Part shown: piece by piece, positions 1 to 9,054 of the stretch
How positions within the stretch are numbered: the first letter of the stretch is position 1
How the letters are laid out: every line of letters starts with the position of its first letter
From: Pseudomonadota bacterium
GTDB lineage: Bacteria; Bdellovibrionota_B; Oligoflexia; Oligoflexales; CAIYRB01
Direction: 5' to 3'
NCBI GenBank assembly: GCA_026390445.1
Contig: JAPLFX010000033.1
Coordinates: 5,731 to 69,730 of the forward strand
Length of the DNA stretch: 64,000 bases
The notes under the pieces: model-generated
Seen by the model: only the letters and a program-made list of their open reading frames with translations
What the model was told of the DNA's origin: nothing
Database searches by the model: none
Made by a program: the position numbers and the translations under genes

Positions 1-2053
1 CGGTCAACCTCGGGGTCACCGCCTGCGCCTTGTCGACTCTACTACCGACATGATCCAAGGGAACGACTGAGTAGTGCCTGTCACTCACTGAGAACTCGCA
101 AATGCCATCGAGCGGATCGACTTTACAATGCGTGACCAACCTACCATGAGGTCCCTCGACGCTGCCTTTGACCTCGAGCCTCCTCGCGTCGAAGCGGTAG
201 AGGCCGTTTGGTCGTTGCCGCGACGCCGGCAACCATTGCGCTAGATAACCTTTGTACCTAGACCAACCGCGGCTTTGCTGTGGCGCCTGGTCGGCAAATT
301 GACAGACGACGTCAAAAAGCAGTGGCAGCCTTGGCAGGGCGACCATGAGATCAAGCAGAGGGTGGTCTCGCGGCCCGCTATAATAGGTAAAGCAGAAATT
401 ACTACCGTAGCGCGAGTGATACAATTTAGCAGGACCGCTTGCAAAGAACATGGTGCCGGTAACGGGATCCAGATGATTTGTCACCTCGGCAAGTGGCGAC
501 TCCAAGGGGCAACGCCCACCTGTGATCGCAAAGCGATCACCCAGCACGAAGCTCATCGTCTTGGCTAAGCTTTCATTCATCGGCGGATTAATGATCGTAT
601 CACCAAGCTGGGGAACGGCGTGCGACTCGAAGACCGCTGAGTCACCCCGATCGTTGATGTAATTCATCAGGTGAAACGCGATGGTTTCGCTTCCTAGGTA
701 GGGTCCCACCTGAACATGGACATGGATATGCGGTTCAGGCGAGTAACCACTGTTGCCACAGCGCCCGATTCCCTGTCCAGACTCGACAAATTGAGATAGT
801 TTACAGCTTATCGATTGATGCTGCAGATGCGCAATCACCACATGTGCGCCATAGGCATCGCGAATGATGACGTAGTTTCCCCATGCATTTTGATTATCCA
901 CAGCGCCAATCACATTATCAGGAAAATGATCGCATACACCGACGACATAACCTGTCGTCGGAGCGGTAATCGGCTGTCCAAAGGCGTAGTAGTCCTCTGG
1001 CGTATGACCAAAGGTTCTAAACGACTGACCACGGTCATCGCGGATGACAAAATCCAAGCTGTGACGCCATACACCCTTGTGGGTCCACGCGCCGTTAAAT
1101 CCCTGATAAACCGCCCATCGCCCGGTAAACGGACAATAAATCCGCGCTTCCCCACTACGAAAGCGCCGCCAACCATGGGCCACAGCGTCGAGCTTATCCT
1201 CTGGCCTGAGATACCATGGCTGATAAAAGGTCGGCTTGGACGACAATAGATAGCCGTATAAGCACGAAGCAGCGCAAGCATTTACCACCATCAGACCTGC
1301 AAGTATGTCGATGTTCGGACCACTTTGAACCTGCAGATAAGTGGTCCAAAGCGATGCCACCGCAGCACCGATCCCAGCCCAAGTGAGCACCGCTAGCGAC
1401 GCCCGATTCGCCGCGACCACGACGATTAAGGAAACCAGAGCCGAGACGGCTATACTCGCCGTATCTCCGCTCGCGTTCATCACAAATGAAACGCCAGCTC
1501 CAAGGCCAATGATCAGCACCGATATCGGCGAATACGCCGCCCACATCGCTAGACCCACCAGGATCACATACCCGCCTACCGACCCTTGCACTTGGTACGC
1601 CTGCACCGGCAGTAAAAGCTTAAAGTACGTCAGGATCTTTAATGTCACGAGCGTCGGCGTCACCAGCACCGGTAGACCACTGAGCCACCACAGTCTCTGG
1701 CACAGGTACACCAACAGAATACACAACGTCACAGCAGCCGCCACTGGGCCGAGCCCATGTCCGTCGTCCGCTCCAGCTGACCACGCAAAGGCTCCGGTCA
1801 GAAACACATTGATCAGAACCACATGGCCCATGGACCGAATATTGATCGATTTTACATCTAGCAGCAGCAGGCCGAGAATACTCCAACTCGCCATGCCAGC
1901 AAGGGCGCTCAGAGGACTTAACAACGCCACAAAGACCACCACCAAGGCGGTTAGTTTCTCCTGTTCTAACAACGGGCGTCGCAACATGGTCCTGAGACGT
2001 TCAGGAACAGGGACAAGCTTCAGGTGCCCAAAAATGGTCGCGGGAATCGCCAT
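1..2053 (-). CDS. Polytopic membrane protein with M23 (LytM-type) zinc metallopeptidase domain; 3' end runs off the left edge (partial)
   Basis: Absent from the supplied ORF track because it has no stop inside the window. My translation of the minus strand from ATG at 2053 is uninterrupted to position 2: MAIPATIFGHLKLVPVPERL... About 270 aa of successive hydrophobic segments are followed by M23 signatures WRHSLDF (HxxxD) and GRCGNSGYSPEPHIHVHV (coded around 711-760). The + strand ORFs 275..568, 815..1249 and 1341..2075 are antisense shadows. Confidence 0.75.
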   Translation of the reverse strand, partial: MAIPATIFGHLKLVPVPERLRTMLRRPLLEQEKLTALVVVFVALLSPLSALAGMASWSILGLLLLDVKSINIRSMGHVVLINVFLTGAFAWSAGADDGHGLGPVAAAVTLCILLVYLCQRLWWLSGLPVLVTPTLVTLKILTYFKLLLPVQAYQVQGSVGGYVILVGLAMWAAYSPISVLIIGLGAGVSFVMNASGDTASIAVSALVSLIVVVAANRASLAVLTWAGIGAAVASLWTTYLQVQSGPNIDILAGLMVVNACAASCLYGYLLSSKPTFYQPWYLRPEDKLDAVAHGWRRFRSGEARIYCPFTGRWAVYQGFNGAWTHKGVWRHSLDFVIRDDRGQSFRTFGHTPEDYYAFGQPITAPTTGYVVGVCDHFPDNVIGAVDNQNAWGNYVIIRDAYGAHVVIAHLQHQSISCKLSQFVESGQGIGRCGNSGYSPEPHIHVHVQVGPYLGSETIAFHLMNYINDRGDSAVFESHAVPQLGDTIINPPMNESLAKTMSFVLGDRFAITGGRCPLESPLAEVTNHLDPVTGTMFFASGPAKLYHSRYGSNFCFTYYSGPRDHPLLDLMVALPRLPLLFDVVCQFADQAPQQSRGWSRYKGYLAQWLPASRQRPNGLYRFDARRLEVKGSVEGPHGRLVTHCKVDPLDGICEFSVSDRHYSVVPLDHVGSRVDKAQAVTPRLT

Positions 2054-2091
2054 TGCAATCGCATTCCGCCGATGAATCAGGTGAATTGACT

Positions 2092-3453
2092 CTACGCGAT
2101 CTCGCGCATCTGTCGCTCGGTCGGCAAGTCCGACTCGGTGCTCTCGACATCAGCGAGGGTTTCCCTGCGCTTAATTTCGATATCCTGTCCGGACTCTAGG
2201 ATCATCACCGCCGCAGGCCTATAGCGTATAAACTGCATCGATTGTGTCATATTGTAGGCACCGACTGGCGATAGGATCAATTGTTGGCCCCTGTCCATGC
2301 GCGGCAACATAATACATTCGTCCACCACATCGATATTCATGCACAGCGGGCCATTGAGTATCGCCGGCTCGAGCATGCCATTCAACGGCGTCGCTGACTC
2401 GACGCAGAACCGGTACCACGACGATGTATAGAGTAGATTGACCCCAGCATCGAGGACATAGGAGCGCCGCCCATCGGGTAGGATTTTATCAGCGACCACT
2501 GAGGTCACCAGATACCCCGACTCATCGACCAAATGCCGCCCAAGCTCCATATACAGCTTCGGTGGATTTAATCGGTCCTTCAGCGGCTTGAGGGGCTCAG
2601 TCAGGCTCTGCGCATATTTTTCGACAGATGGAATAGCAATCTCGGGAGCCTGATAGACCCCCTTTAGACGATTGAGGCTAGCAAAGCCCCCACCTAGGTC
2701 TAGGTACGTGATCGGCAGGCGGGTGATCGCTTCAACCTCATGCATAAACTCCACGACTTTTTCAGCAGCCTTTTTGTATGCCTGATGATCGATAACAAAG
2801 GTCCCGATATGGCTATGGATGCCGGTTAAGTTGAGATGCTGACTGTCATGGATCCTGCGCACAGCGCCAAGGGCATGACCGCTTTCGAGGTTAAAGCCAA
2901 AGCGACTCCAGTGTGGATAGATTCCTGTTTGGCAATTGATGCGGATCCCGATGGAGATCTCTCGACCGAGCTGGCTGGCGATGGCTTCTAAGTCTTCAAT
3001 TTCGCCAAAGTGGTCGATATTGATGATCGCCCCTTCAGTCACCGCCGTGAGCAACGATTCCTTCGTCTTGTAGGGGCCGTTGTAGATGATATCTTTGCCA
3101 GCGATGCCTAGATTTCTTGCCTTCTCGTATTCAAAGTCACTCACCACTTCGGCTAGTGCACCCAGACGGTGAAAGGTTTGGCACACGGCCCTAAGATAAT
3201 TGGTCTTGTAGCTCCAGCCAAACTGAACGTTGCTGTACTGTTCCGACACCGCTTTATAAGCCGCTTGATATTTTTCAATCAAGCTAGCTTGAGAAAAGAC
3301 GAACAGCGGCGAGCCGTATTTTTCGACCAAGTCGCCGATCTTGTGCCCGCAGATGTCCTTACGGATCTGACTGAAATTGTCGAGTGTCATCCCATTTTTT
3401 GAATACATCGGGTTGCCGACCTTAACCATTGTAGGCTTCTCGTAGGCTTTCAT
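2092..3453 (-). CDS. PLP-dependent decarboxylase, Orn/DAP/Arg decarboxylase family (fold type III)
   Basis: 453 aa. Family hallmarks: SPLFVF start of the barrel, PLP-lysine context FGWSYKTN, GIHSHIGT, glycine-rich LDLGGGF, and C-terminal GAYNMTQS. Starts 1 nt after the ATP-grasp stop. Confidence 0.85.
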   Translation of the reverse strand: MKAYEKPTMVKVGNPMYSKNGMTLDNFSQIRKDICGHKIGDLVEKYGSPLFVFSQASLIEKYQAAYKAVSEQYSNVQFGWSYKTNYLRAVCQTFHRLGALAEVVSDFEYEKARNLGIAGKDIIYNGPYKTKESLLTAVTEGAIINIDHFGEIEDLEAIASQLGREISIGIRINCQTGIYPHWSRFGFNLESGHALGAVRRIHDSQHLNLTGIHSHIGTFVIDHQAYKKAAEKVVEFMHEVEAITRLPITYLDLGGGFASLNRLKGVYQAPEIAIPSVEKYAQSLTEPLKPLKDRLNPPKLYMELGRHLVDESGYLVTSVVADKILPDGRRSYVLDAGVNLLYTSSWYRFCVESATPLNGMLEPAILNGPLCMNIDVVDECIMLPRMDRGQQLILSPVGAYNMTQSMQFIRYRPAAVMILESGQDIEIKRRETLADVESTESDLPTERQMREIA

Positions 3454-4500
3454 CTAACTGGCTCCTTGTTGACCGAGTGTGATGAGATCATGAAATAAAT
3501 CCCAGTCGCCGACGCATTCCTGAGTAAACCGTATCAGATGCTTGCTGACCGGATAGGACAAGTCCCGGTTGCAATCACCCGTCAAGATAAAGTCGAGCAT
3601 TCGGTCGGGAAGATTTACGCCGACCGCTGTTGCAAAGTAGACCCAGGCAGGAAATCTCGGGTTGATCTCAATCAGGTAGATCTGCTGTTGATGCCGCATC
3701 GCCTCCAACTCAAAGGGGCCACGCCACTTAGTCGTCTTGCAAAAAGATTTGGCCAGCTCGATCAGCTGTTCGTCACGAATCGTCACCGCGGTCCAAACTT
3801 TGCCGAGGTCGGTTTTTGTCTGCTTTTTTATGCACACACAACCGCACAGTTCACCCTGCCCGTCACCAAGACCGATCAAGTTGATTTCCGGGCCTTCAAT
3901 ATATTTTTGGATCACTAAGGGAAAACCCCATTCAGCGGCGATTTCCGTCGCCTTTTCCACCGCCGAGCTGTGATTGTAAACCTTGTAGGCCTTGTAGTAA
4001 TTGCCTTTGACGACGGCGGGAAAGTCTATTTTCTCAGGAATAATCTTATACAATTCATCGATTGAATAGGCGCACTCGGTCTTCGGGTACTGGCAGCCAA
4101 TTGCATCGGTCAAGACCGCTAGATTCGCCTTGCTGCGTAAGTCGAATTGCTCTTGCGTCGGCAACAGGCAGCGAATGCCCATGATTTTAAGTTCGTTGGC
4201 GTATTTGATATAAAGCGGGAGTTCGACATCGAGATTTGGCAGCAAAAACTCAAAGCCAGTCTCTTGTCTGATCGTCTGTAGGCGCTCCGACACGACCTTC
4301 CAGCCTTTGCTCGGATAGGGCAGCAGGTAGCTCTGGTCGATCCATGACTTTAGATAGTGGCCCGGGTCGTTCGCATCATAGCCAAGACCGATGATGCGCA
4401 CAGGTCGTCCCGACTCCTTCAAACTACGCGCAATCGCCACGCCAGGCCCAGGGTTGTCGGTGGCGTTGATCCCCGAAAGGGCTATGACCAAAGGCTTCAT
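3454..4500 (-). CDS. ATP-grasp family carboxylate-amine ligase
   Basis: 348 aa. ATP-grasp core FPAVVKG..., PLVIQKYIEGPEINL, and LIEINPRFPAW (Mg/ATP loop). The start overlaps the upstream PqqD-like ORF by 4 nt. Confidence 0.8.
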   Translation of the reverse strand: MKPLVIALSGINATDNPGPGVAIARSLKESGRPVRIIGLGYDANDPGHYLKSWIDQSYLLPYPSKGWKVVSERLQTIRQETGFEFLLPNLDVELPLYIKYANELKIMGIRCLLPTQEQFDLRSKANLAVLTDAIGCQYPKTECAYSIDELYKIIPEKIDFPAVVKGNYYKAYKVYNHSSAVEKATEIAAEWGFPLVIQKYIEGPEINLIGLGDGQGELCGCVCIKKQTKTDLGKVWTAVTIRDEQLIELAKSFCKTTKWRGPFELEAMRHQQQIYLIEINPRFPAWVYFATAVGVNLPDRMLDFILTGDCNRDLSYPVSKHLIRFTQECVGDWDLFHDLITLGQQGAS

Positions 4501-4736
4501 GCGGAGAATCCTTGGGAATTGAGCATGGCGGTGAATTCGTAGACGTCGGACAAGGCAGAGCCATAAGCGACGTCAAACTCCCGACTCAGAGCCTCGGCGA
4601 TAAGCTGTGGGCTACGTCCCTCCTGCAAGCCGCGCAGAACCAGGGTCGCGCTCTCATTGAGGCGGTAGCTGTCACCACTTCGAGGGTCCATAGCGACCCC
4701 CCGCCGGCTGATCTGCAAAAGTTGCCAATCTGACAT
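4497..4736 (-). CDS. PqqD-like small protein (possible peptide/carrier-binding chaperone)
   Basis: The track ORF is 4497..4766. I prefer ATG at 4736 (MSDWQLLQISRRGVAMDPRSGDSYRLNESATLVLRGL...), which is preceded by a GGGGG purine run. The pattern 'dp.sg..y.LNesa..i...l.g..s...i...l...f.v' is typical of PqqD/RRE-type domains. Confidence 0.6.
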   Translation of the reverse strand: MSDWQLLQISRRGVAMDPRSGDSYRLNESATLVLRGLQEGRSPQLIAEALSREFDVAYGSALSDVYEFTAMLNSQGFSA

Positions 4737-4858
4737 GTCGACGCCCCCACTCGTTGGGAAACCCAAGTGCTAGTCCCTGAATCTCCGACTTCATAATCTG
4801 TATGGCTGAGATCGGCAGTTGTTCGATTTAGTTTAGCCTGTTGCCCTACAGCAAGCGG

Positions 4859-4877
4859 CGCCCCGCTCTACGGGGCG
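4859..4877 (-). terminator. GC-rich stem-loop downstream of the LpxH-like gene
   Basis: The arms cgccccg / cggggcg form a 7-bp stem with a 5-nt loop, about 88 nt past the stop at 4965. No U-tract follows, so it is only a weak intrinsic-terminator candidate. Confidence 0.3.
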
Positions 4878-4964
4878 GCTACGGCGCGCGCACAAGCAGC
4901 CAACGCGCATAAGAATTTGCCGCTGTCTGCGCTGTCCAACAATTGCTCCACACAGGTAAAATTT

Positions 4965-5759
4965 TTAACTAAACAGAGAGACTACAGGCTCTGCGACAAA
5001 GGGCAGACCAGGCTCCTGCAAGTGCACCCGCTGAAATTGGCCATCGCGGTAGATCAAAGCATTTGGTCGGTCCCAGCTGTCGACGCTAAGAAGCAAACCT
5101 GAACGGCCATGCCGGGGCTCCGCGTAGGGCACATGAAAATGGCCGATGATGCCATGGTCAAACGCACCCTCGTCGACCCAAGCACGAAATGCGTCGAGGA
5201 TCCGCTGATGATTCAACGTCCGGTATCGGTCCTGGGACCTTGAGATCTTGGCGTGCCGAAGGGAATAGGCATCCAGCCATCCCCCAGGGATGTAACCAGC
5301 CGCGCGTCGGGCAAACTGACTCTTGATCAAGCCGCGAAACGCTCGGTAGAGCGGATCCTCGGTGATCAGGTCACCATGGGTGATTTTAATCCGCTCGCCG
5401 CTGCGTAAGGTGAGAGCAAAATCCTTCGCCAGGACAAACTCCACCCCGGACCATCCGCTCCGGTCCATATGGACCTCATGGTTCCCCTCGACAAAGACGA
5501 CGCGAATGCCCCGCTTGGCCGCCGCCTCCAGGGCTTCGCCCAGGGGCCTAAATTTGCGCCGATAGTATGCCGCATCGCCAAAGCAAAAATCAAAGATATC
5601 TCCATTTAAAACAAACACTTCGACTTCCGAGCTGAGGCGCTCGATAAGATCCAACAACAAGCGTCCGCGCCGGTCCGCCATGTGCTGGATATGCACATCA
5701 GAAGCCAAAACCAAGGAGGCGGTTAAGGAATCACCTTGGGCTTGATGGGACGGGGGCAT
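4965..5759 (-). CDS. Calcineurin-like metallophosphoesterase, UDP-2,3-diacylglucosamine hydrolase (LpxH)-like
   Basis: 264 aa. Metallophosphoesterase motifs SDVH, NGDIFDF, EGNHE and GHFH occur in LpxH order. Confidence 0.75.
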   Translation of the reverse strand: MPPSHQAQGDSLTASLVLASDVHIQHMADRRGRLLLDLIERLSSEVEVFVLNGDIFDFCFGDAAYYRRKFRPLGEALEAAAKRGIRVVFVEGNHEVHMDRSGWSGVEFVLAKDFALTLRSGERIKITHGDLITEDPLYRAFRGLIKSQFARRAAGYIPGGWLDAYSLRHAKISRSQDRYRTLNHQRILDAFRAWVDEGAFDHGIIGHFHVPYAEPRHGRSGLLLSVDSWDRPNALIYRDGQFQRVHLQEPGLPFVAEPVVSLFS

Positions 5760-5920
5760 TCGACTCCTCGGGATTGGTCTCGGGGTTCACTTTGCGGCTC
5801 GAACGCCCCCAGTATAGCTGCATAAGCTGGAATGCTCTTGCAAAACCTTCATGATTCTGGTTTTTTAGATCCGCTTCATAGCCTATTAAACCATCGGTTC
5901 CGGTTATCAGGAGGGCATTC

Positions 5921-6163
5921 ATGTCTTTATCGGTTGAAGAAAAGGTTAAGCAGATCGTCGTCAATCAGCTTGGCGTCGAGGAGACCTCGGTCATCGGCAA
6001 AGCCAAATTCATCGAAGACCTGGGCGCAGACTCCCTCGACATCGTCGAACTGGTGATGGCGATGGAAGAAGCCTTCGGCGTCGACATCCCTGATGAAGAA
6101 GCTGAGAACATCCGCACCGTCGATGACGCGGTCTCCTTCATCAAAAAAGCGGAAGATGCTTAA
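5921..6163 (+). CDS. acpP: Acyl carrier protein
   Basis: 80 aa. Phosphopantetheine site [17 protein letters not shown]. Confidence 0.95.
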
Positions 6164-6176
6164 AGGGTAGACGCCG

Positions 6177-6641
6177 ATGGCGAGTAAGATCGGGATCGCC
6201 GCAGACCATGCCGGCAAAGAGCTTAAGCAGCTAGTTGCCGACTTCGTCGGCCTGAAGAATTTTGAAGTGATCGACTACGGCGTCGCCAACGACTCCAATA
6301 AATCTGTCGACTATCCCGACTACGCGGCCATCCTCGCTGCGGATGTCGCCAGCGGCAAGATTGATCGCGGCGTGTTGATCTGTGGCACCGGCATCGGCAT
6401 GTGCATCACAGCCAACAAGTTTCCCGGCGTGCGCGCGGCCCAGGTCTGGGACGAGTTCACGGCGCGGATGAGCCGCGCCCACAATGATGCCAACATCATC
6501 TGCCTTGGTGCGCGCGTGACCAATCACCACCGCGCCGTGGAGCTAGTCAACCTGTGGTTGGACACGCCTTTTGAAGGCAGCCGCCATCAGGCGCGCCTGG
6601 ACAAAATCCGCGAAATCGAAAAAAAGCTCGGCAAGCGCTAA
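6177..6641 (+). CDS. rpiB: Ribose-5-phosphate isomerase B
   Basis: 154 aa. RpiB/LacAB family: IGIAADHAG, LICGTGIGMCITANK, RAHNDANIICLGAR. Confidence 0.93.
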   Translation: MASKIGIAADHAGKELKQLVADFVGLKNFEVIDYGVANDSNKSVDYPDYAAILAADVASGKIDRGVLICGTGIGMCITANKFPGVRAAQVWDEFTARMSRAHNDANIICLGARVTNHHRAVELVNLWLDTPFEGSRHQARLDKIREIEKKLGKR

Positions 6642-6674
6642 GCAAACCGGCTTTACCCTTGAGAGGAGCTACCC

Positions 6675-7937
6675 GTGTTGAAGCCCTGGGACGTATTGGC
6701 GAGTAAAGATCCTGAAGTGTTCCGCTTGATCGAGGCCGAGCTGCATCGCCAGCAAGAGGGCCTAGAGTTGATCGCTTCAGAAAACTTCGCTTCAGCTGAG
6801 GTCATCGCCTGCATGGGCAATGTTCTCGCCAACAAATACGCTGAAGGCCTACCCGGTAAGCGCTACTACGGCGGCTGCGAGGTCGTCGACCAGGTTGAAA
6901 CGATCGCTATTGAGCGCTTAAAGCAGCTGTTCGGCGCCAAGTTCGCCAACGTCCAGCCGCATTCGGGCGCCCAGGCTAACGCCGCCGTTTACCTCGCCCT
7001 CGCTAAGCCAGGCGACCGCATCCTCGGCCTCGATCTGTCGCACGGTGGTCATTTGACCCACGGCTCGAAGGTCAACTTCTCCGGAATCCTCTACGAGTCC
7101 CACTTTTATACCGTGCAGCCCGATAGCAATCTGATCGACTTCGCCTCGGTCCGCAAGCTGGCCCATGAGCTAAAGCCGAAGATCATCGTCGCTGGCGCCA
7201 GCGCTTACCCACGCGCCATCGACTTTGCGGAGTTCCGCCGCATCGCCGACGAGGTCGGTGCCTACCTGTTTGTCGATATGGCCCACATCGCCGGGTTGGT
7301 AGCCGCTGGACTGCATATGAACCCAGTCCAGCATGCTCACGTCGTCACGACCACCACCCACAAGACCCTGCGCGGCCCGCGTGGCGGCGTCATCATGTGG
7401 AACGACGAGGCCCTCACCAAAGAGATCAACAAGGCGGTCTTCCCCGGCACCCAGGGTGGACCTCTCGAGCACGTCATCGCCGCCAAGGCGGTCTGTTTTC
7501 GCGAAGCGCTGCAGCCGGAATATAAGAGCTACCAACTCGAAGTCGTTCGCAATGCTGCCTACCTCGGCGAGGAGCTCATTCGGCAGGGCTTCAAATTGGT
7601 CTCCGGCGGCACCGACAACCATCTCGTCCTGCTCAACCTGTCGGACTCTCCCGTCAGCGGCAAGGATCTCGAAGAGGCGCTCGGCAAAATCGCCATCACC
7701 GTCAACAAAAACACCGTTCCGGGTGAAAAGCGCAGCCCATTCGTCACCAGTGGCGTACGCATTGGCACGCCGGCCGTGACGTCCCGTGGCCTCGGTCGCA
7801 CGGAAATGGCCCAGATCGCCGGTTGGGTGCGCCAAGCCTATGATCATGTGAAGGACGACCAGTACTTGGCCGGCCTCAAGCGCGAAGTCGTGGCACTGGC
7901 GCAGCGCTTCCCACTCTACCCCGGCTGGGCCAACTAG
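6675..7937 (+). CDS. glyA: Serine hydroxymethyltransferase
   Basis: 420 aa. GTG start behind [29 protein letters not shown], and [15 protein letters not shown] (PLP lysine). Confidence 0.97.
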
Positions 7938-7948
7938 GGAGTCCAGCA

Positions 7949-8401
7949 GTGAAATGCCAGGTGTGTGGGTCTGAGGACACAAAAGTGCTGGAGAGCCGCC
8001 TCAGCGATGGCGGCCGCAGCGTTCGGCGCCGCCGTTGTTGTGTCACCTGCAATCACCGCTTTACGACCTATGAAAAGGAGGAGGTGTTTGCCTTCTCCAT
8101 CATTAAAAAAGATCTTCGGGTCGAACCCTACAGCCGCGACAAAGTCTTTCGGTCGATTCAAACCGCTTGCCAAAAGCGGCCGATCACCTATGAACAGATC
8201 GATGCGATGATCTCGCGGCTGGAAAAGACGGTGCAGGACTCTGGCGAGCGTAGCGTCGCCAGCCAAAGACTCGGCGACCTCATCATGGATAGCTTGCACG
8301 GTCTGGATAAAGTGGCTTACGTCCGCTTCGCCTCGGTCTATAAAGACTTTCAAGACCCCAGCGAATTCATGCGCGAGATCGACCGGCTGGACACCGAATA
8401 A
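7949..8401 (+). CDS. nrdR: Transcriptional repressor NrdR
   Basis: 150 aa. N-terminal zinc ribbon MKCQVCG...CVTCNHRFTTYE followed by an ATP-cone. Confidence 0.93.
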   Translation: MKCQVCGSEDTKVLESRLSDGGRSVRRRRCCVTCNHRFTTYEKEEVFAFSIIKKDLRVEPYSRDKVFRSIQTACQKRPITYEQIDAMISRLEKTVQDSGERSVASQRLGDLIMDSLHGLDKVAYVRFASVYKDFQDPSEFMREIDRLDTE

Positions 8402-8424
8402 CGCGCTTTTAAGGACCTAGACCC

Positions 8425-9054
8425 ATGTTTACTGGCATCGTCGAACGCACAGGCCGAATCCTCTCTTTGACGACACCGGCCACCGCCGCGGGAGGAGCCA
8501 TGGGCGCTATCAGCCAGCTCATCATCGACGCCGGCAAGGGTTTTGAGACACGCCCCGGCGATAGTGTGGCGATCAACGGCTGCTGCTTGACCGTCACCAG
8601 CAACAAGGTCCAGCTACTGGCCTTTGACGTCAGTCGGGAAACCCTCGCCCACACCAGTCTTGGCGAGCTCGGCGAAAACAGCGAAGTCAACCTGGAGCGG
8701 GCCCTAAAGCTCGGCGATCGCCTTGGCGGCCACCTCGTCTCCGGTCACATCGATGGTGTCGGCGTCGTCGATCGCATTTTAAAACAGCCCGATGGCTGGG
8801 AGCTGATGCTGCAGATCCCAACATCTCTGGGCCGCTACGTCATCCGCAAGGGCTCCATCTGCCTTGATGGGGTCAGCTTGACGGTCAATGCCCTCGCTGA
8901 CCACGGCCAGACCACAATCATCGGCCTCACCTTGATCCCCACAACGGTTAGTATGACGGCGCTCAAGTCGCTACACGAAGGGCAACGCATCAACGTCGAG
9001 GTCGACACCATTGGTAAGTATGTCGAACGCTTAACTCAGCTCGCCGATACCTGA
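8425..9054 (+). CDS. ribE: Riboflavin synthase (alpha chain)
   Basis: 209 aa. MFTGIVE start and a duplicated lumazine-binding repeat (AINGCCLTV / CLDGVSLTV). Confidence 0.93.
   Translation: MFTGIVERTGRILSLTTPATAAGGAMGAISQLIIDAGKGFETRPGDSVAINGCCLTVTSNKVQLLAFDVSRETLAHTSLGELGENSEVNLERALKLGDRLGGHLVSGHIDGVGVVDRILKQPDGWELMLQIPTSLGRYVIRKGSICLDGVSLTVNALADHGQTTIIGLTLIPTTVSMTALKSLHEGQRINVEVDTIGKYVERLTQLADT

Follow-up and report, generated by a model that had tools for sequence, protein, structure and literature searches.

What could a PqqD-like recognition protein guide when it is encoded with a ligase, a decarboxylase, and a membrane-bound peptidase, and no precursor peptide gene lies nearby? This question is raised by a cassette at the start of a 64,000-nucleotide stretch of DNA, hereafter the window, from a Pseudomonadota bacterium (Genome Taxonomy Database lineage Bdellovibrionota_B, Oligoflexia, Oligoflexales, CAIYRB01; assembly GCA_026390445.1, contig JAPLFX010000033.1, positions 5,731 to 69,730 of the forward strand). 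Four tightly packed open reading frames (ORFs) on the minus strand of the window encode a PqqD-like protein of the RRE type (RRE, recognition element for peptides that ribosomes make and that are modified after translation [RiPPs]), an ATP-grasp ligase, a pyridoxal phosphate (PLP) decarboxylase of the alanine-racemase fold (AR-fold), and a membrane protein in which a urea transporter (UT)-fold domain is fused to an M23 zinc peptidase (UT-M23). A preliminary description of the window, made from its letters, had treated these genes as a unit engaged in carrier- or peptide-bound amino-acid chemistry. Comparison of homologous loci supports a real, uncharacterized operon whose four genes form a functional unit, probably making and releasing a small amine or amide product, and points to the N-terminal tail of the decarboxylase as the likely peptide element of the cassette.

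A four-gene cassette conserved across diderm phyla

Relatives of the cassette were collected by scanning one genome per species, which returned at least 600 matching stretches, at least 571 of them encoding a relative, and the best 80 were fetched as loci. Within these 80, tblastn and ORF clustering placed PqqD, ATP-grasp, decarboxylase, and UT-M23 in this order on one strand in essentially all loci with a contig of sufficient length; order and strand are thus kept across phyla, which supports the view of the four genes as a unit. The numbers of loci recovered by clustering were 74 for the ATP-grasp protein, 70 for the decarboxylase, 58 for UT-M23, and 46 for a group of outer-membrane and tetratricopeptide repeat (TPR) proteins. 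A PqqD homolog was found by profile search in 78 loci, the remaining two ending at a contig edge, and in most of the 80 its stop codon lies no more than about 12 nt from the ATP-grasp start. The hosts named in the records include Pseudomonadota (Thiomargarita, Polynucleobacter-like bacteria, and Francisella), Bdellovibrionota/Oligoflexia, Campylobacterota, and Aquificota, together with Planctomycetota, Verrucomicrobiota, Lentisphaerae, Cyanobacteria, Elusimicrobia, and Ignavibacteria/Melioribacter, and among the sampled loci the cassette is limited to diderm bacteria. Cross-phylum identity of the enzymes is about 46 to 60%, and even distant UT-M23 proteins were found in the same gene context. 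Because the synteny recurs across phyla, chance adjacency and an ordinary unlinked LysA are both refuted. An ordinary LysA or SpeC with unlinked neighbors was the contrary case that the preliminary description had raised against itself; the family scores given below fall under the curated cut-offs, and linkage is conserved.

Some records require care in reading. The titles of several metagenome-assembled genomes (MAGs) are implausible (for example "Klebsiella pneumoniae," "Rickettsia typhi," "Aquifex aeolicus," and "Actinomycetota" for a contig whose sequences are of cyanobacterial type; loci L016, L046, L048, and L078). These names are probably binning or labeling errors, and the taxonomic spread can therefore be read at phylum level only. 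In one Aquificales MAG (L034, 6902-9633) the cassette is broken after the ATP-grasp gene, with no decarboxylase or UT-M23 gene within 10 kb; here a 473-aa ORF with a seemingly transposon-related N-terminal sequence precedes PqqD, which suggests a rearrangement.

The decarboxylase carries an invariant leader-like tail

An N-terminal extension of about 23 residues, conserved in every phylum, precedes the part of the decarboxylase that can be aligned with FigC or with diaminopimelate decarboxylase (DAPDC); alignments to FigC and to Methanocaldococcus jannaschii DAPDC begin only at query residues 30 to 34, downstream of this tail. Its consensus is M-x-x-Y-E-K-P-x-I-x-K-(L/I/V)-x-x-x-(L/M)-x-x-K-(F/Y/H)-G. 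When conservation was counted in 69 orthologs, Tyr4, Pro7, and Lys19 were each present in 100%, as were I/M/F at position 9 and L/I/V at position 12; position 21 was Gly in 87% and Ala in 13%, the two together accounting for all sequences. Lys6 and a Lys or Arg at position 11 were each found in 91%, and Phe, Tyr, or His at position 20 in 90%. An AlphaFold2 model built from a 40-sequence alignment gave residues 1 to 28 a per-residue confidence (pLDDT) of 38 to 56 and no secondary structure, whereas most of the body exceeded 90. A segment that is invariant yet predicted to be flexible is as expected of a partner-binding peptide.

The spacing of the invariant positions resembles that of a lasso peptide precursor. 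Lasso leaders depend on a conserved YxxPxL element, which spans positions -17 to -12, to be recognized by the PqqD-type B1 protein (PMC10368454). Superimposed on such a precursor, the tail places Tyr4 at -17, Pro7 at -14, Ile/Met9 at -12, Lys19 at -2, and Gly/Ala21 at +1, the last two being the remaining key sites in a lasso precursor, and a YxxPxL-type motif with Gly or Ala 17 residues after the Tyr is present in 69 of the 69 tails, a likeness of motif only and one carried by an enzyme rather than a peptide. The window tail matched the NCBIfam model lasso_leader_L3 over residues 4 to 14 (E = 0.028, below the cut-off) and weakly matched Pfam DUF5972 (E about 0.001), a family matched by four of 26 tails; a literature search found no mention of DUF5972. 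A lasso-like macrolactam formed on a processed enzyme was considered and ruled out, there being no conserved Asp or Glu 7 to 9 residues after Gly21.

The small protein resembles an ordinary RRE and has no precursor gene beside it

The PqqD-like protein matches Pfam PqqD with E = 8.6e-12 (45.7 bits against a cut-off of 23.4), and its best NCBIfam match, lasso_PqqD_Strm, also at 45.7 bits, falls under that model's cut-off of 70. Its alignment displays the typical RRE sequence pattern, and alignment and Pfam searches revealed no PP-binding domain, conserved Cys or Lys, acidic C terminus, or invariant attachment residue. On sequence grounds the protein thus looks like an ordinary RRE, and a role as a LysW- or acyl carrier protein (ACP)-like carrier was ruled out, there being no conserved C-terminal acid, Cys, or Lys and no PP-binding domain. 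To our knowledge, every characterized PqqD-type RRE binds peptides. In one locus (L067, 4670-6885), the intact ATP-grasp gene is preceded by a tandem partial duplication, in which PqqD occurs as a pair of identical copies together with a 5' fragment (127 aa) of the ligase gene, either an assembly artifact or a recent duplication.

No conserved separate gene for a precursor peptide was found near the cassette in the 80 loci, in agreement with the preliminary description, which had identified no convincing precursor in the window. Clustering of ORFs of 15 to 110 aa from -5 to +9.5 kb (blastp, 1e-4) returned only PqqD and out-of-frame shadows of conserved genes, and intergenic ORFs of 12 to 69 aa compared by blastp-short at 0.05 yielded low-complexity noise only. 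By eye, no motif common to the 450-nt stretches upstream of the PqqD genes was apparent. One 40-aa ATG-initiated ORF (MKSEIQGLALGFPNEW...; window 4672-4794, minus strand) overlaps the 5' end of PqqD in a different reading frame and, being confined to near-identical genomes (L001 and L007), is an unlikely precursor.

A decarboxylase from a group acting on tethered amino acids and an ATP-grasp family of its own

The decarboxylase is assigned by Pfam to Orn_Arg_deC_N (9e-30) and Orn_DAP_Arg_deC (1.1e-8). Among curated NCBIfam models it scored 258.8 bits against FslC (NF041039; E = 7.9e-77, below the cut-off of 500) and 208.5 bits against lysA (TIGR01048; E = 1.2e-61, below the cut-off of 297.9). 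In the Protein Data Bank (PDB), the best match was FigC (7kh2, 2.7e-64), ahead of DAPDC (about 1e-39; 7.7e-39) and BtrK (3e-16), the last (2j66/7ru7) ranking only 25th to 26th. FigC, SbnH, AcsE, MccE, BtrK, DAPDC, and D-ODC form one clade unrelated to polyamine synthesis, and several members of the FigC/BtrK clade take as substrate an amino acid to which some other moiety has been linked beforehand (PMC7857480). These placements support membership of the decarboxylase in the AR-fold group whose characterized members use side-chain-tethered amino acids. The catalytic set is invariant, including the PLP-lysine K83, H215, G254-256, E303, R306, C371, and Y400. FigC residues H357 and R387, which are implicated in citrate binding (PMC7857480), align to Ile and Gln, and because these residues are replaced the substrate is not N-citrylornithine. 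Identity as a LysA, FslC, or BtrK ortholog was ruled out by the curated cut-offs, the residue changes, and the PDB ranking. In the source records the orthologs are annotated as "diaminopimelate decarboxylase" or "alanine racemase."

The preliminary description had likened the cassette to butirosin side-chain assembly. Tethered chemistry of this kind survives in the sense that the decarboxylase falls in an AR-fold group with tethered substrates; the part that made the PqqD-like protein the carrier does not, and BtrK is only a distant relative.

The ATP-grasp ligase matches Pfam ATPgrasp_Ter (2.1e-9) and ATP-grasp_3 (1.9e-7), and its NCBIfam matches, to "CPSase-like" models only, all stay below threshold. 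Whether the PDB was searched with the single sequence or with a profile, the nearest structure was 2pn1, itself uncharacterized, followed by PylC, pyruvate carboxylase, and carbamoyl-phosphate synthase. A database clustered at 90% identity contained 2976 homologs at E < 1e-5; those from different phyla are 46 to 72% identical over the full length, and the best 120 are all about 348 aa long and 49 to 99% identical. Invariant residues include K165, E278, N280, and R282. The ligase forms a distinct, uncharacterized family of its own.

A urea transporter-type membrane domain fused to an M23 peptidase

The UT-M23 ORF runs past base 1 of the window, and the leftward extension proposed in the preliminary description was achieved by exact-sequence match to longer metagenome contigs (L001-L006), on which the protein is 687 aa long, its three last codons and the stop lying beyond the window. 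About eight hydrophobic segments had been counted initially; the AlphaFold2 model (30 sequences; pLDDT 82.8, predicted template modeling score 0.74) instead has ten membrane helices (residues 30-271) in a urea-transporter fold, followed by an amphipathic helix, an M23 domain (about 300-450), and a beta-rich domain (455-667). In Foldseek, the membrane part aligned with UT-B of cattle (4ezc_B; E = 5.8e-5, 301 columns). The membrane domain of the window protein gave no match to Pfam UT (PF03253) even at E <= 10; orthologs carry the NCBI name "urea transporter" and match both Pfam UT and Peptidase_M23, the UT match ranging from 1e-35 to 4e-61 in those of Bdellovibrio, Caminibacter, and Fluviicoccus (P0128, P0132, and P0142). 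Orthologs fall below the cut-off of the Yut equivalog model (TIGR03441; 118 against 274.6). Most of them keep the UT pore motifs "LPVLSLPF" and "LPVxTLPFN" (alignment A2), which are degenerate in the clade of the window, the first being altered to "LPVLVTPT" and the second lost. A 2026 survey of urea transporters lists the architecture of an N-terminal UT and a C-terminal M23 domain (Biol Direct 21:32, PMC12998343).

The peptidase domain matches Pfam Peptidase_M23 (E = 4.7e-12; 46.4 bits against a cut-off of 28.7), and Foldseek related it to DipM, lysostaphin, Csd1/2, and ShyA. Residues H325, D334, H409, H442, and H444 are invariant in 30 sequences. Of the two M23 motifs initially proposed, GNSG..PHIH stands; the supposed HxxxD is really R-H-S-L-D (HxxD), and its His is Tyr in most orthologs. 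The domain also contains an insertion of about 25 residues (335-360) that separates the conserved D-F from the usual "G-x-P-V-x-A-P" strand, as well as a nearly invariant Cys in "CGNSGYSPEPH," and neither belongs to the Pfam match, which starts at residue 359. The C-terminal domain (455-684) had no Pfam or PDB match by sequence or profile, and a phmmer search of 1.84 billion representative proteins returned only 36, all of them either of UT-M23 length with the match at the C terminus or fragments. In one ortholog (P0141, 1112 aa; L087, 6193-9531), the UT-M23 region is followed by a fused domain of the beta-lactamase/DD-peptidase fold (PF00144), and a second PF00144 gene lies nearby, a hint that the amide bonds hydrolyzed may be unusual or D-configured.

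Both termini of UT proteins are cytoplasmic. In UT-M23, Lys/Arg-rich segments flank the membrane domain on both sides and there is no signal peptide. Because of these features, the M23 and C-terminal domains are probably cytoplasmic, beside the other three enzymes.

Envelope genes downstream of UT-M23

Downstream of UT-M23, 46 loci encode a beta-barrel protein of about 285 to 330 aa that has a signal peptide and ends in an aromatic residue, for which no Pfam family was found beyond a weak OmpG-like match. A periplasmic TPR protein (about 200 aa, with a signal peptide) follows the barrel, the pair being sometimes fused or reordered. Cyanobacterial loci (L083, 14962-16509; L056, 14690-16288; L063, 14547-16094) have an SLH-OprB porin directly after UT-M23, and from its sequence and position this porin is taken as a non-orthologous outer-membrane channel replacing the barrel in the same slot. 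On the 136-kb contig L001, which extends the window, three more same-strand genes come after UT-M23. The product of the first, 396 aa long, has a signal peptide and combines an N-terminal part resembling TPR proteins with a beta-barrel-like C terminus ending ...LSLNW; the second encodes an ATP-binding cassette (ABC) ATPase resembling NodI and DrrA, and the third an ABC-2 permease resembling NodJ and DrrB. This ABC-2 exporter pair (L001, 15794-17462) was found only in the clade with degenerate UT pore motifs. Because the degenerate-pore clade alone carries ABC-2 genes, the exporter may have replaced the decayed channel there, the UT domain being kept as an anchor. Together, the envelope genes suggest a route across both membranes for a small hydrophilic compound, and the role in release or export first assigned to the membrane M23 protein fits the nearby barrel, TPR, and ABC-2 genes.

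A tentative model for the cassette

Our preferred reading, which we hold only tentatively, is that the cassette is a self-contained pathway for a small product, one that starts in the cytoplasm, ends at the outer membrane, and uses RiPP-type addressing. The PqqD-like RRE, translationally coupled to the ATP-grasp ligase, would bind the tail motif Y-x-K-P-x-I/M-x-K-hydrophobic of the decarboxylase and so bring the invariant Lys19, which corresponds to lasso "-2," into the active site of the ligase. The ligase would then join a free amino acid through its carboxylate to Lys19 as acceptor at the expense of ATP, candidates being Glu or Asp through the side-chain carboxylate, or one end of diaminopimelate. 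The AR-fold domain, on the same chain or across a dimer, would decarboxylate the free alpha-amino-acid end of the tethered residue, following the logic of butirosin BtrJ/BtrK with the decarboxylase's own tail in place of a separate carrier. Beneath the UT-type channel, the cytoplasmic M23 domain would cleave the (iso)peptide bond and free a small amine or amide at the channel mouth. The product would leave through the UT pore, if the presumed direction is right, or in the window clade probably through the NodIJ/DrrAB-like ABC-2 exporter instead, and would cross the outer membrane through the dedicated beta-barrel with help from the periplasmic TPR protein. A tail that serves as carrier would also explain the absence of a precursor gene. 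The central element of the model, a decarboxylase tail acting as an RRE-addressed "swinging arm" that is loaded by the ATP-grasp ligase at Lys19 and unloaded by a channel-fused M23 peptidase, is possible but doubtful.

Several observations weigh against this model. The similarity of the tail to lasso-leader families is sub-threshold throughout; nine other orthologous tails had no match in NCBIfam, and neither the window tail nor the tail profile found a lasso leader in the PDB. No close precedent is known to us for an enzyme that tethers a substrate to its own tail, and Lys19 could be a protease-recognition residue, like Thr(-2) of lasso leaders, rather than an acceptor. The invariant pair H325...D334 of the peptidase forms H(x8)D, unusual against the canonical HxxxD, and the cytoplasmic location of the domain is a predicted topology. 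The UT pore is very narrow: charged compounds such as gamma-aminobutyric acid and lysine are unlikely to pass, and a small neutral product, which such a pore favors, is not among the simple hydrolysis products.

Alternative explanations

The alternative that survives best, though in our judgment unlikely, is a pathway for a free small molecule in which the ATP-grasp ligase couples a soluble acid to an untethered amino acid (such as Orn, Lys, Dap, Ser, or Glu) at its side chain and the decarboxylase then takes off the alpha-carboxylate, in chemistry like that of FigC, SbnH, AcsE, or vibrioferrin PvsA/PvsE; the RRE-tail contact would only dock the enzymes to form a channeling complex, and the M23 domain would trim or activate the product, or regulate the channel, before secretion. 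Vibrioferrin biosynthesis does pair an ATP-grasp enzyme with an AR-fold decarboxylase, and passive channels such as UT proteins and porins suit a small soluble compound. The cross-phylum identity of about 50 to 60% likewise suggests one fixed chemistry, and the best matches of the decarboxylase are siderophore-type conjugate decarboxylases (PMC7857480). However, the FigC citrate-binding residues are missing, and the neighborhoods show no recurrent genes for an NIS (nonribosomal peptide synthetase-independent siderophore) synthetase, a TonB receptor, or iron regulation. Docking alone would also leave unaccounted for the conservation of Lys19, aromatic residue 20, and Gly21 beyond the RRE-binding motif, as well as the obligatory fused peptidase, and the characterized PqqD-type RREs known to us all bind peptides.

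The coincidence of the conserved tail positions with lasso -17, -14, -12, -2, and +1 could instead reflect processing of a pro-enzyme, which we regard as rather improbable. Here the tail would be a genuine leader of lasso type, and the RRE would deliver the decarboxylase to the membrane-anchored M23 domain, which would cut between aromatic residue 20 and Gly21, either activating or localizing the enzyme or freeing a 20-residue peptide that the ATP-grasp ligase and the decarboxylase would modify, borosin-like, at its new C terminus. M23 enzymes typically cut next to Gly, and position 21 is Gly or Ala in every ortholog, within a tail predicted to be flexible; an RRE, a protease, and an amide ligase would moreover mirror the lasso B1/B2/C set with non-homologous enzymes. 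Such a scheme makes one product per enzyme molecule, a costly arrangement for a system kept in many lineages, and leaves the role of the ATP-grasp ligase vague. A peptide would not fit through the UT pore, and the conserved acidic residue 7 to 9 positions past Gly21 that a lasso-like ring would need is absent.

Less probable still is a conventional RiPP pathway with its precursor encoded elsewhere, or too short or variable to be recognized, to which the RRE would bind, on which the ATP-grasp ligase and the decarboxylase would act, and for which M23 would be the leader peptidase. An RRE, an ATP-grasp enzyme, a peptidase, and an exporter are standard RiPP gene content, and tiny precursors such as PqqA are easily missed. 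However, RiPP precursors nearly always cluster with their RRE, and no conserved small ORF was detected from about -6 to +10 kb in the 80 loci, even at a relaxed threshold. The invariant leader-like tail of the decarboxylase would be left unaccounted for, and a cross-phylum enzyme identity of 46 to 60% is atypical of RiPP tailoring enzymes.

Transport in the opposite direction is improbable. Under this reading, a urea-like amide would enter through the barrel and the UT channel and be processed or trapped by the M23-type hydrolase, the ATP-grasp ligase, and the decarboxylase. Most orthologs retain canonical UT pore motifs and match Pfam UT over its full length, passive pores such as UT channels and porins work in both directions, and urea-type nitrogen sources are important to aquatic bacteria, which make up most of the hosts. 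Nevertheless, an ATP-grasp ligase, an amino-acid decarboxylase, and an RRE follow biosynthetic rather than catabolic logic, the window clade has lost the pore motifs and has an exporter-type ABC-2 system, and no urease or allophanate hydrolase genes recur nearby.

Modification of the envelope, which the preliminary description had kept as an option, has a very low probability. A decarboxylated diamino acid, polyamine-like, would be attached to peptidoglycan precursors or envelope proteins, with M23, the barrel, and the TPR protein acting on or binding the wall. Peptidoglycan hydrolysis is the classical activity of M23 enzymes, Selenomonas has peptidoglycan linked to cadaverine, the cassette is diderm-restricted and linked to outer-membrane and TPR genes, and one ortholog bears the beta-lactamase/DD-peptidase-fold fusion described above. 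The topology argues against this role because the M23 domain follows a complete UT domain with a cytoplasmic C terminus and no signal peptide, which would put it in the cytoplasm; moreover, the RRE and the leader-like tail would have no role, and no Mur, flippase, or transpeptidase genes recur in the neighborhoods.

Finally, the chance that the decarboxylase is a housekeeping LysA or SpeC in fortuitous adjacency is negligible: the annotations of its orthologs and the lysA E value invite that reading, but the lysA score is below the cut-off, FigC is a far better match than any DAPDC, the decarboxylase is linked to the ATP-grasp gene in 70 of 80 loci across phyla, and the invariant tail lies upstream of the region aligned to FigC and M. 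jannaschii DAPDC.

Relation to characterized systems

The butirosin proteins BtrI, BtrJ, and BtrK resemble the cassette in that an ATP-grasp enzyme and then an AR-fold PLP decarboxylase work with a small partner protein, the substrate of BtrK being carrier-tethered. In contrast, BtrI is an ACP whereas the small protein of the cassette has the PqqD/RRE fold, and the thioester-type carrier link of butirosin differs from the amide link proposed here on the decarboxylase's own tail. The butirosin cluster also has no counterpart of the UT-M23 fusion or of the outer-membrane components.

Lasso systems offer an analogous trio in the B1 RRE, the B2 protease, and the C cyclase, set against the RRE, M23, and ATP-grasp proteins here. 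Neither the transglutaminase-like B2 nor the asparagine-synthetase-like C protein is present in the cassette or among its recurrent neighbors. The "leader" of the cassette is fused to a 430-residue enzyme; lasso position -2 is Thr, Ile, or Val, and that of the tail is Lys; and the acidic ring-closing residue after +1 has no equivalent in the tail.

FigC/FslC are the closest characterized relatives of the decarboxylase, and SbnH and AcsE share their conjugate-decarboxylation logic. Those pathways use an NIS synthetase, in contrast to the ATP-grasp partner here, and the cassette has no siderophore uptake genes.

In 3-thiaglutamate/pearlin, mycofactocin, and PQQ biosynthesis, an RRE or a peptide directs the chemistry at the end or a side chain of a peptide and a peptidase releases a small product, and borosins carry the substrate peptide within the enzyme that modifies it. 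Such scaffold-peptide pathways use peptide aminoacyl-tRNA ligases (PEARLs), radical S-adenosylmethionine (rSAM) enzymes, or methyltransferases, whereas the cassette uses an ATP-grasp ligase and a PLP decarboxylase. Its putative scaffold sits at the N terminus of the decarboxylase and would be released by a channel-fused M23 domain, and neither these pathways nor borosins are known to have UT, barrel, or TPR proteins.

Graspetides need a precursor with an Asp/Glu and Ser/Thr/Lys core, whereas the cassette has no precursor and its tail no conserved acidic residue. A survey of graspetide ATP-grasp loci makes no mention of a decarboxylase, M23, or urea (PMC8939145). The urea-transporter survey noted above (PMC12998343) treats the architecture only, giving no operon context, topology argument, partner enzymes, or function, and its Pfam UT model is too remote for the UT domain of the window. 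Judged by sequence, then, the cassette falls outside LysA, FslC, BtrIJK, lasso, and graspetide systems and shares the generic features of RRE, UT-fold, and M23 proteins. No NCBIfam model was found that names any of the four proteins, and a literature search returned no paper describing the operon.

The cassette appears to extend known RRE-guided and carrier-tethered amino-acid chemistry, with a substantial chance of being categorically new if the enzyme-borne leader or carrier proves true. A large family has so far had no assigned function (the 2976 ATP-grasp homologs and at least 571 loci from species-representative genomes), and its members are mislabeled "diaminopimelate decarboxylase," "alanine racemase," "carbamoyl-phosphate synthase," and "urea transporter." RRE-based RiPP mining assumes a nearby precursor, and here the sole conserved leader-like sequence sits on an enzyme. 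If the model is correct, leader/RRE recognition would extend beyond peptides and be reused for enzyme-borne catalysis, as a first case, and would define a new class of scaffolded small-molecule biosynthesis across many bacterial phyla. It would equally give UT-M23 fusions their first function, and identifying the substrate of the M23 domain would give a whole UT subfamily a function. The hosts range over vent Campylobacterota and Aquificota, cyanobacteria, freshwater PVC (Planctomycetes-Verrucomicrobia-Chlamydiae) bacteria, predatory Bdellovibrionota, and aquatic Francisella, among which a shared secreted metabolite could matter ecologically.

Layout of the locus and neighboring genes

The coordinates of the cassette are collected in Table 1. 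They bear out the initial account of four same-strand genes with a 4-nt overlap (PqqD/ATP-grasp), a 0-nt gap (ATP-grasp/decarboxylase), and a 38-nt gap (decarboxylase/M23). The original assignments as PqqD, ATP-grasp, DAP-decarboxylase-like, and M23 proteins likewise hold, the Pfam matches of all four exceeding the curated cut-offs. The PqqD start called in the metagenome contigs is the ATG at 4736.

Table 1. Features of the cassette in the window
Feature	Position	Strand	Details
PqqD-like RRE protein	4497..4736	-	79 aa from the ATG at 4736; frame open to a TTG at 4766
ATP-grasp carboxylate-amine ligase	3454..4500	-	348 aa; Pfam ATPgrasp_Ter, ATP-grasp_3
Alanine-racemase-fold PLP decarboxylase	2092..3453	-	453 aa; Pfam Orn_Arg_deC_N, Orn_DAP_Arg_deC
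Decarboxylase N-terminal tail MKAYEKPTMVKVGNPMYSKNGMTL	3382..3453	-	Codons 1-24; conserved, predicted flexible, lasso-leader-like
UT-M23 fusion protein	1..2053	-	684 of 687 aa inside the window; runs past base 1
Ten-helix UT-fold membrane domain (predicted)	1238..1972	-	About residues 28-272; Foldseek match to UT-B
M23 zinc-peptidase domain	704..1156	-	About residues 300-450; Pfam Peptidase_M23
Beta-rich C-terminal domain, family-specific	2..691	-	Residues 455-684
Intergenic region upstream of PqqD	4737..4964	-	228 nt

Promoter and terminator scans gave background level, with nothing clear in 4737..4964, and Rfam searches of window bases 1-6500 (E <= 1) and of seven orthologous loci found nothing. 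PADLOC returned no anti-phage defense match beyond generic ABC ATPase matches. In a plasmid collection, only a 30%-identical Streptomyces fusion protein was found, in an unrelated context.

Directly upstream of the cassette and on the same strand lies a gene for an LpxH-like metallophosphoesterase (264 aa; window 4965-5759, minus strand; below the NCBIfam LpxH cut-offs), whose linkage to the cassette was not seen in other genomes. Beyond it, a housekeeping block on the plus strand (window 5921-9054) comprises acpP-like (80 aa), rpiB, glyA, nrdR, and riboflavin synthase/rib genes, which are not conserved neighbors of the cassette in other loci; the acpP-like gene, at 5921-6163, belongs to this block on the opposite strand and lies outside the cassette.

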